Of a DNA stretch of 64,000 bases, positions 23,086-23,235 are shown in pieces (position 1 is the stretch's first letter; every line of letters starts with the position of its first letter). The notes below the pieces were generated by a model. The model did not search any database and was not told where the DNA came from. It saw only the letters and a list, made by a program, of their open reading frames with translations. Location of the stretch: assembly GCF_058153355.1 (NCBI RefSeq), contig NZ_CM177019.1; one strand, written 5' to 3'. The translations under genes were made by a program, and so were the position numbers.

Positions 23086-23175
23086 TCACTCTGCCAGATG
23101 GCGCAATGCCATCTGGTATCACTTAAAGGTATTAAAAACAACTTTTTGTCTTTTTACCTTCCCGTTTCGCTCAAG

Positions 23176-23189
23176 TTAGTATAAAAAGC
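23176..23189. other. Phage lambda attB core (unoccupied)
   Basis: Minus-strand reading ctgctttttatactaacttgagcgaaacgggaagg matches the remembered attB (BOB') with one T fewer in the T-run by my count; lies between ybhB and ybhC. Confidence 0.55.
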
Positions 23190-23235
23190 AGGCTTCAACG
23201 GATTCATTTTTCTATTTCATAGCCCGGAGCAACCT

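Follow-up and report, generated by a model that had tools for sequence, protein, structure and literature searches.

The window analyzed here, a 64,000-nucleotide stretch of contig NZ_CM177019.1 (NCBI RefSeq assembly GCF_058153355.1), carries the ybhB and ybhC genes next to each other on the plus strand. ybhB (positions 22609 to 23085; NF007609, E=9.5e-104), encoding a kinase inhibitor, and ybhC (positions 23236 to 24519; NF007822, E=2.6e-219), encoding a putative acyl-CoA thioester hydrolase, are both intact, and the gal-mod-ybh-bio-uvrB-moa neighborhood is collinear between the window and Escherichia coli K-12. The spacer between the two genes contains, on the minus strand, a 20-bp variant of the phage lambda bacterial attachment site attB (BOB'), CTGCTTTTTATACTAACTTG (positions 23172 to 23191), whereas the published site is the 21-bp sequence CTGCTTTTTTATACTAACTTG (PMC2831311). 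The plus strand at positions 23160 to 23200 reads tcccgtttcgctcaagttagtataaaaagcaggcttcaacg, the reverse complement of which contains CTGCTTTTTATACTAACTTG, and the site is single copy in the window even when up to 3 mismatches are allowed (chance expectation, 0.00). Its 14-bp core, GCTTTTTATACTAA, spans positions 23176 to 23189 of the minus strand, and the T run within the core (positions 23183 to 23187, minus strand) consists of exactly five Ts instead of the canonical six, of which three come from the B arm and three from the overlap. The loss of this base is reflected in the length of the spacer, which is 150 nt in the window and 151 nt in genomes with six Ts.

The individual elements of the site can all be placed on the minus strand. 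The B' arm, a core-type binding site of the lambda integrase (Int) with the canonical sequence TAACTTG (positions 23172 to 23178), faces ybhB on the bio side and is identical to that of K-12. The 7-bp overlap TTTATAC (positions 23179 to 23185), in which strand exchange takes place, is preserved in an alignment anchored on B'. The B arm lies toward ybhC on the gal side, and with the overlap and B' in register, the place that it has to occupy (positions 23186 to 23192) reads CCTGCTT, compared with the canonical CTGCTTT, so that its CTT triplet is off by one base. A first-pass annotation of the window, made from the letters alone, had recognized an unoccupied lambda attB between ybhB and ybhC, quoted the minus-strand string ctgctttttatactaacttgagcgaaacgggaagg, and counted five Ts where the canonical core was expected to have six. 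The string occurs in the window exactly as quoted, the count of five holds, and the expectation was also right, as the counterpart in K-12 MG1655 is GCTTTTTTATACTAA, with six Ts. The alignment to the K-12 attB that had been proposed as a check thus leaves the observation standing, because the run length of the reference differs.

The site is recognized as the lambda attB because it shares its sequence and its flanks with K-12 (no substitutions in the 328 nt around attB, positions 22982 to 23309), because the synteny is conserved, and because a textbook lambda attL occupies the same place in the nearest relative. It lies at the lambda locus, between ybhB and ybhC and between the gal and bio operons, its overlap matches attP at 7 of 7 positions when aligned on B', and TAACTTG follows immediately 3' of the overlap. 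The overlap TTTATAC of attP and attL was confirmed in the relative L006 and in lambda records. The element that departs from the strict arrangement of 7, 7, and 7 bp is the B arm; instead of CTGCTTT directly 5' of the overlap in a 21-bp site, the B sequence is present but 1 bp too close in a 20-bp site, which changes 4 of the 7 positions at the B place. Prophages with a lambda-type Int are found at the locus in relatives. The five-T site is a known attachment site, the lambda attB, in the form of a rare natural allele that departs from the strict arrangement on the B side. A search for prophage or phage genes beside attB in the window found none, and since its flanks are free of phage genes, the attB is empty, in agreement with the first-pass annotation.

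The window is ~95 to 96% identical to K-12 and to most E. coli strains, and when it was compared with 5,426 complete genomes, about 17 strains came closest, at 98 to 98.8%. Because near matches are so few and most E. coli strains are that distant, the window comes from a deep-branching, sparsely sampled E. coli-like lineage. The nearest complete relatives have six Ts, in an empty site in L005 and in a canonical lambda attL in L006 (98.5% identical to the window), in which int and xis adjoin ybhC. This indicates that the five-T state is derived, and the change from six to five Ts would most likely have arisen by replication slippage in the homopolymer.

Exact-protein look-ups with YbhC, UvrB, and YbhH of the window identified four assemblies of the same clone, and SNP patterns show that they represent two further isolates (GCA_015332025.1/SRR8656992 and GCA_043012465.1/SRR28786219), both of which have the same five-T core. 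Two independent assemblies exist for each isolate, an NCBI draft and one produced by Logan from the raw run, and the clone assemblies are 99.97 to 99.99% identical to the window with zero indels. Position 23346, within ybhC, is an A in the window and a T in both other isolates and is therefore a private SNP. Three private one-base deletions separate the window from its nearest relatives, namely, the T of attB, one in ybhD at ~32419, and one at ~13995, the latter two of which are also present in the clone contigs that cover those positions. An artifact, in which a genuine run of six Ts was called one base short during sequencing or assembly, has to be considered, as homopolymer contraction is a typical error type and the deletions at ~13995 and ~32419 adjoin purine runs. 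However, all three deletions are common to the independent assemblies of the other isolates, the clone contigs break at a multicopy intron in the manner of short-read assemblies, and gene integrity in the window is otherwise normal, with 37 of 38 K-12 genes intact; we regard an artifact as extremely improbable. As two further isolates that were assembled independently share it, the five-T core is not an assembly error, and on these comparisons, it is a genuine trait fixed in the clone. Reads with six Ts had been named beforehand as the observation that would count against the deletion, and the read-derived assemblies of the clone show five instead.

Several other features distinguish the window from K-12. 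A complete group II intron (positions 24583 to 26943, minus strand) is located 64 nt downstream of ybhC, with Rfam-defined group II domains on the minus strand at positions 24583 to 24659 and 26742 to 26889, a reverse transcriptase/maturase ORF at positions 24664 to 26406 (TIGR04416, E=6e-111), and an abutting naRNA4/REP element at positions 26947 to 27017. The intron is absent at ybhC from K-12 and the nearest relatives, and it is considered multicopy because its ends are where short-read contigs from the clone terminate. The LysR-family regulator gene ybhD (positions 32300 to 33249) has lost a G at ~32419 (AAAAAAGATGG to AAAAAAATGG) and is thereby frameshifted; this frameshift is confined to the clone, and its occurrence in an independent clone assembly indicates a real pseudogene. 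A 4.8-kb island between yvcK and uvrB (positions 10207 to 14972), absent from K-12, contains fragments of an EspX/NleL-like effector (pentapeptide repeats and a SopA-type HECT C-terminal domain) and a hypothetical gene of 550 amino acids, which the one-base deletion at ~13995 splits into two ORFs (positions 13161 to 14060 and 14045 to 14812) and which is intact in strain 2017-02-2CC. In addition, within positions 3735 to 5209, the ybhM ortholog is unusually divergent from that of K-12, with 89.8% amino acid and 92% nucleotide identity, and a weak second ybhM-like match with a stop codon adjoins it at positions 4502 to 5209.

The attB site comprises two 7-bp core-type Int sites around a 7-bp overlap that must be identical to that of its partner (PMC2831311; PMC2952878), and heterology in the overlap depresses recombination (PMC2817482). 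Core sites are reported to require a CTT triplet, and in more than 300 secondary sites of lambda, T at positions -5 and -6 and C at position -7 are among the best-conserved positions (PMC5605937). The consequences of the missing T depend on how the site is aligned. In the left register, with the alignment anchored on B, only 2 of 7 overlap positions and 11 of 21 positions of the whole site are identical to the canonical site. In the right register, anchored on B', the site reads CCTGCTT, TTTATAC, and TAACTTG, with 7 of 7 overlap positions and 17 of 21 site positions identical. The changes in this register are confined to the outer B arm, where the CTT triplet has moved by one base, and of the 9 positions of the conserved secondary-site motif, 7 are kept, with positions -6 and -7 lost. 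Since the canonical run of six Ts extends across the junction of B arm and overlap, the best interpretation of the deletion appears to be that the B arm has moved by one base.

If the alignment is set by the strong B' arm, the overlap TTTATAC would still match attP exactly, and the Int protomer bound 7 bp to the left would face CCTGCTT in place of CTGCTTT, with the CTT triplet displaced. Synapsis and bottom-strand chemistry at B' would be expected to proceed normally, whereas at B the cleavage and exchange of the first strand would be less efficient. Such a hypomorphic attB would have an efficiency between that of the wild-type site and that of a good secondary site, and stable lysogeny by phages with a lambda Int would be lowered by perhaps one to three orders of magnitude, not abolished; deletion of attB lowers integration 100- to 1,000-fold (PMC5605937). 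Any integrant would be predicted to have an attL with five Ts and an attR with six. The favored reading, that this is an empty primary lambda-type attB with a genuine, clone-fixed T deletion that shifts the B arm and makes the site hypomorphic for integration, is probably correct. The attachment site would accordingly be weakened but probably not dead; both the magnitude and the sign of this effect are predictions from the sequence. The suggestion in the first-pass annotation that the missing T could change integration efficiency is mechanistically reasonable; more specifically, the overlap stays intact, and the effect would come from a B arm that is one base out of register.

The five-T allele is rare. 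Empty and intact sites were found in ~3,316 of the 5,426 complete E. coli genomes, and only two of these, AH21G053 and VL7S7, which are related neither to one another nor to the window, have five Ts, while none of the ~3,316 has seven. In comparison, a T run in the galE-modF spacer (positions 40641 to 40648) has eight Ts in the window, six in K-12 and L006, and seven in VL7S7, suggesting that ordinary intergenic homopolymers vary freely, unlike the attB run, although few genomes were compared. A lambda-P'-type attL is present at the locus in ~1,920 of the 5,426 genomes, and with roughly 35% of the genomes occupied, phage traffic at the locus is heavy. Since the five-T empty sites represent only three independent lineages and the background occupancy is ~35%, their emptiness is statistically uninformative. 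Among prophage junctions in the complete genomes, 11 or 12 attL sequences, representing about six independent combinations of host and prophage, and 2 attR sequences, which were found with a shorter attR query, have five Ts, whereas the lambda-type phages in the phage collection included no five-T attP. Several of the five-T attL cases are prophage remnants disrupted by IS3. Flank comparison showed that the host backgrounds of the five-T attL lysogens have six-T empty sites, which suggests that these attL alleles arose in or after integration. An initial impression that five-T cores were restricted to attL, which would have meant that the deletion travels with the B arm through actual integrations, was rejected when the two five-T attR sequences were found, and the asymmetry between attL and attR was dropped as evidence, since it is nonsignificant per independent event and the five-T lysogens lie in six-T backgrounds.

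These data allow a neutral polymorphism to be evaluated, in which the five-T site would perform roughly like the wild type, given its intact overlap and B' arm and the cooperative delivery of Int to B by the intasome. The right-register match described above, with its perfect overlap and 7 retained motif positions, is in keeping with such neutrality. Moreover, B is the weakest of the core sites and the attP intasome takes up attB as naked DNA, so that Int may be more tolerant of a displaced B arm than the prediction allows. Five-T attL sequences also accompany intact-looking prophages, for example, in 22AR0750, Z1323PEC0008, and N10; a five-T attL is the expected product of integration into a five-T attB, and these junctions might indicate that integration can proceed with a five-T B arm. 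These lysogens, however, sit in six-T backgrounds and do not demonstrate the use of a five-T attB, and the two positions lost from the motif are those at which the B arms of secondary sites are most conserved (PMC5605937). In addition, the near-invariant run length in nature, with two five-T and no seven-T cores in ~3,300 empty sites while the galE-modF run varies among a handful of genomes, argues against neutrality, which we consider unlikely. The five-T junctions and empty sites show recurrent slippage in the T run, and they decide nothing about whether a five-T attB is used.

A different origin, in which the allele is the excision scar of a prophage with a five-T attL or has been selected because it limits lysogenic conversion by lambda-Int phages, was also considered. 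Junctions have five Ts more often (13 of ~3,705) than empty sites do (2 of 3,316; Fisher's P=0.009, per genome), this very attB would be restored if a five-T attL and a six-T attR recombined in the right register during excision, and the high occupancy of the locus provides ample phage traffic. Counted per independent event, however, the excess is marginal (about 6 versus 2; P=0.06), and flank comparison found no lineage common to a five-T empty genome and a five-T lysogen. Moreover, the window has no traces of phage DNA near attB, and the loss of attB gives no protection from lytic infection, leaving the selective benefit unclear. A scar or a selected allele is thus very unlikely. The excess of five Ts in junctions could reflect relaxed constraint or the trapping of prophages. 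A broader and improbable idea is that slippage of the core T run naturally switches lambda-type attachment sites on and off or dims them. If this were true, five-T empty lineages such as the present clone would be refractory to lysogenic conversion by lambda-Int phages, and five-T junctions would trap prophages because their attL and attR are incompatible or poorly cleaved, which would explain why attL sequences have five Ts several times more often than empty sites do.

A role of the T run for the host was also examined. The spacer has zero substitutions relative to K-12 against a background divergence of ~4%, and unusual conservation of the spacer was rejected since 5% of 150-nt windows are equally clean. 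Consensus scans across the ybhB-ybhC spacer yielded no promoter-like or terminator-like consensus, and Rfam gave no match over the attB core; a host regulatory role for the T run is unsupported by these scans. In species-representative contigs, a collection apparently without Escherichia, a variable-gap pattern scan gave no match, and in a plain-pattern scan, the only match was JAEWTL010000008.1, a 2.5-kb contig of a "Bacillota bacterium" metagenome-assembled genome (MAG) that ends in an E. coli attR junction at positions 2360 to 2500. This junction has a lambda-like P arm, a six-T core, and a ybhB-side flank, and the contig is almost certainly an Escherichia contamination of the MAG bin.

The site of the clone shares its locus, flanking genes, B' arm, and overlap sequence with the K-12 attB (CTGCTTT, TTTATAC, and TAACTTG) and differs from it in being one T shorter, so that 7 bp each for B, the overlap, and B' cannot be satisfied at once. 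Single-base deletions in the T run of the common core are reportedly the basis of the att-defective mutants att24 and att6, which are attributed to Shulman and Gottesman and are said to have been sequenced by Landy and Ross. These mutations reportedly come from laboratory isolations and affect phage and prophage sites. The five-T attB of the clone would represent the same lesion, and it differs from att24 and att6 in being natural and fixed in a lineage. Like the secondary sites of lambda (Tanouchi and Covert 2017, PMC5605937; Rutkai et al. 2003), which have imperfect cores and are used by Int at low frequency, the five-T site has an imperfect core; it is much nearer to attB than typical secondary sites are, with a perfect overlap and 7 of 9 motif positions, and it lies at the primary locus, but it is without a correctly placed CTT in B. 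The site-affinity (saf) mutations are also core changes that alter partner compatibility, with matching mutations in both partners restoring the recombination that overlap heterology depresses (PMC2817482). However, saf mutations are substitutions inside the overlap, whereas the five-T deletion is a change of spacing and register on the B side, and its overlap can stay identical to that of attP.

The best natural precedent for the five-T attB is the mutated Sa3int attB-LA of livestock-associated Staphylococcus aureus CC398, in which integration is ~2 log lower and phages are diverted to alternative sites (PMC8649754). In both cases, a natural change in the primary attB of a tyrosine integrase is fixed in a lineage, although phage, host, and integrase differ, attB-LA has two substitutions, and its effect was measured, while that of the five-T site is predicted. 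Site-specific recombination has its textbook target in the lambda attB, which is also a heavily used landing site for prophages. The five-T allele, which beyond the uses named here is a one-base polymorphism in a very well understood site, provides a ready-made natural test of the register and B-arm requirements of Int in vivo, and its practical weight would lie in lambda or CRIM integration and in the prediction of lysogenic conversion in the lineage of this clone.
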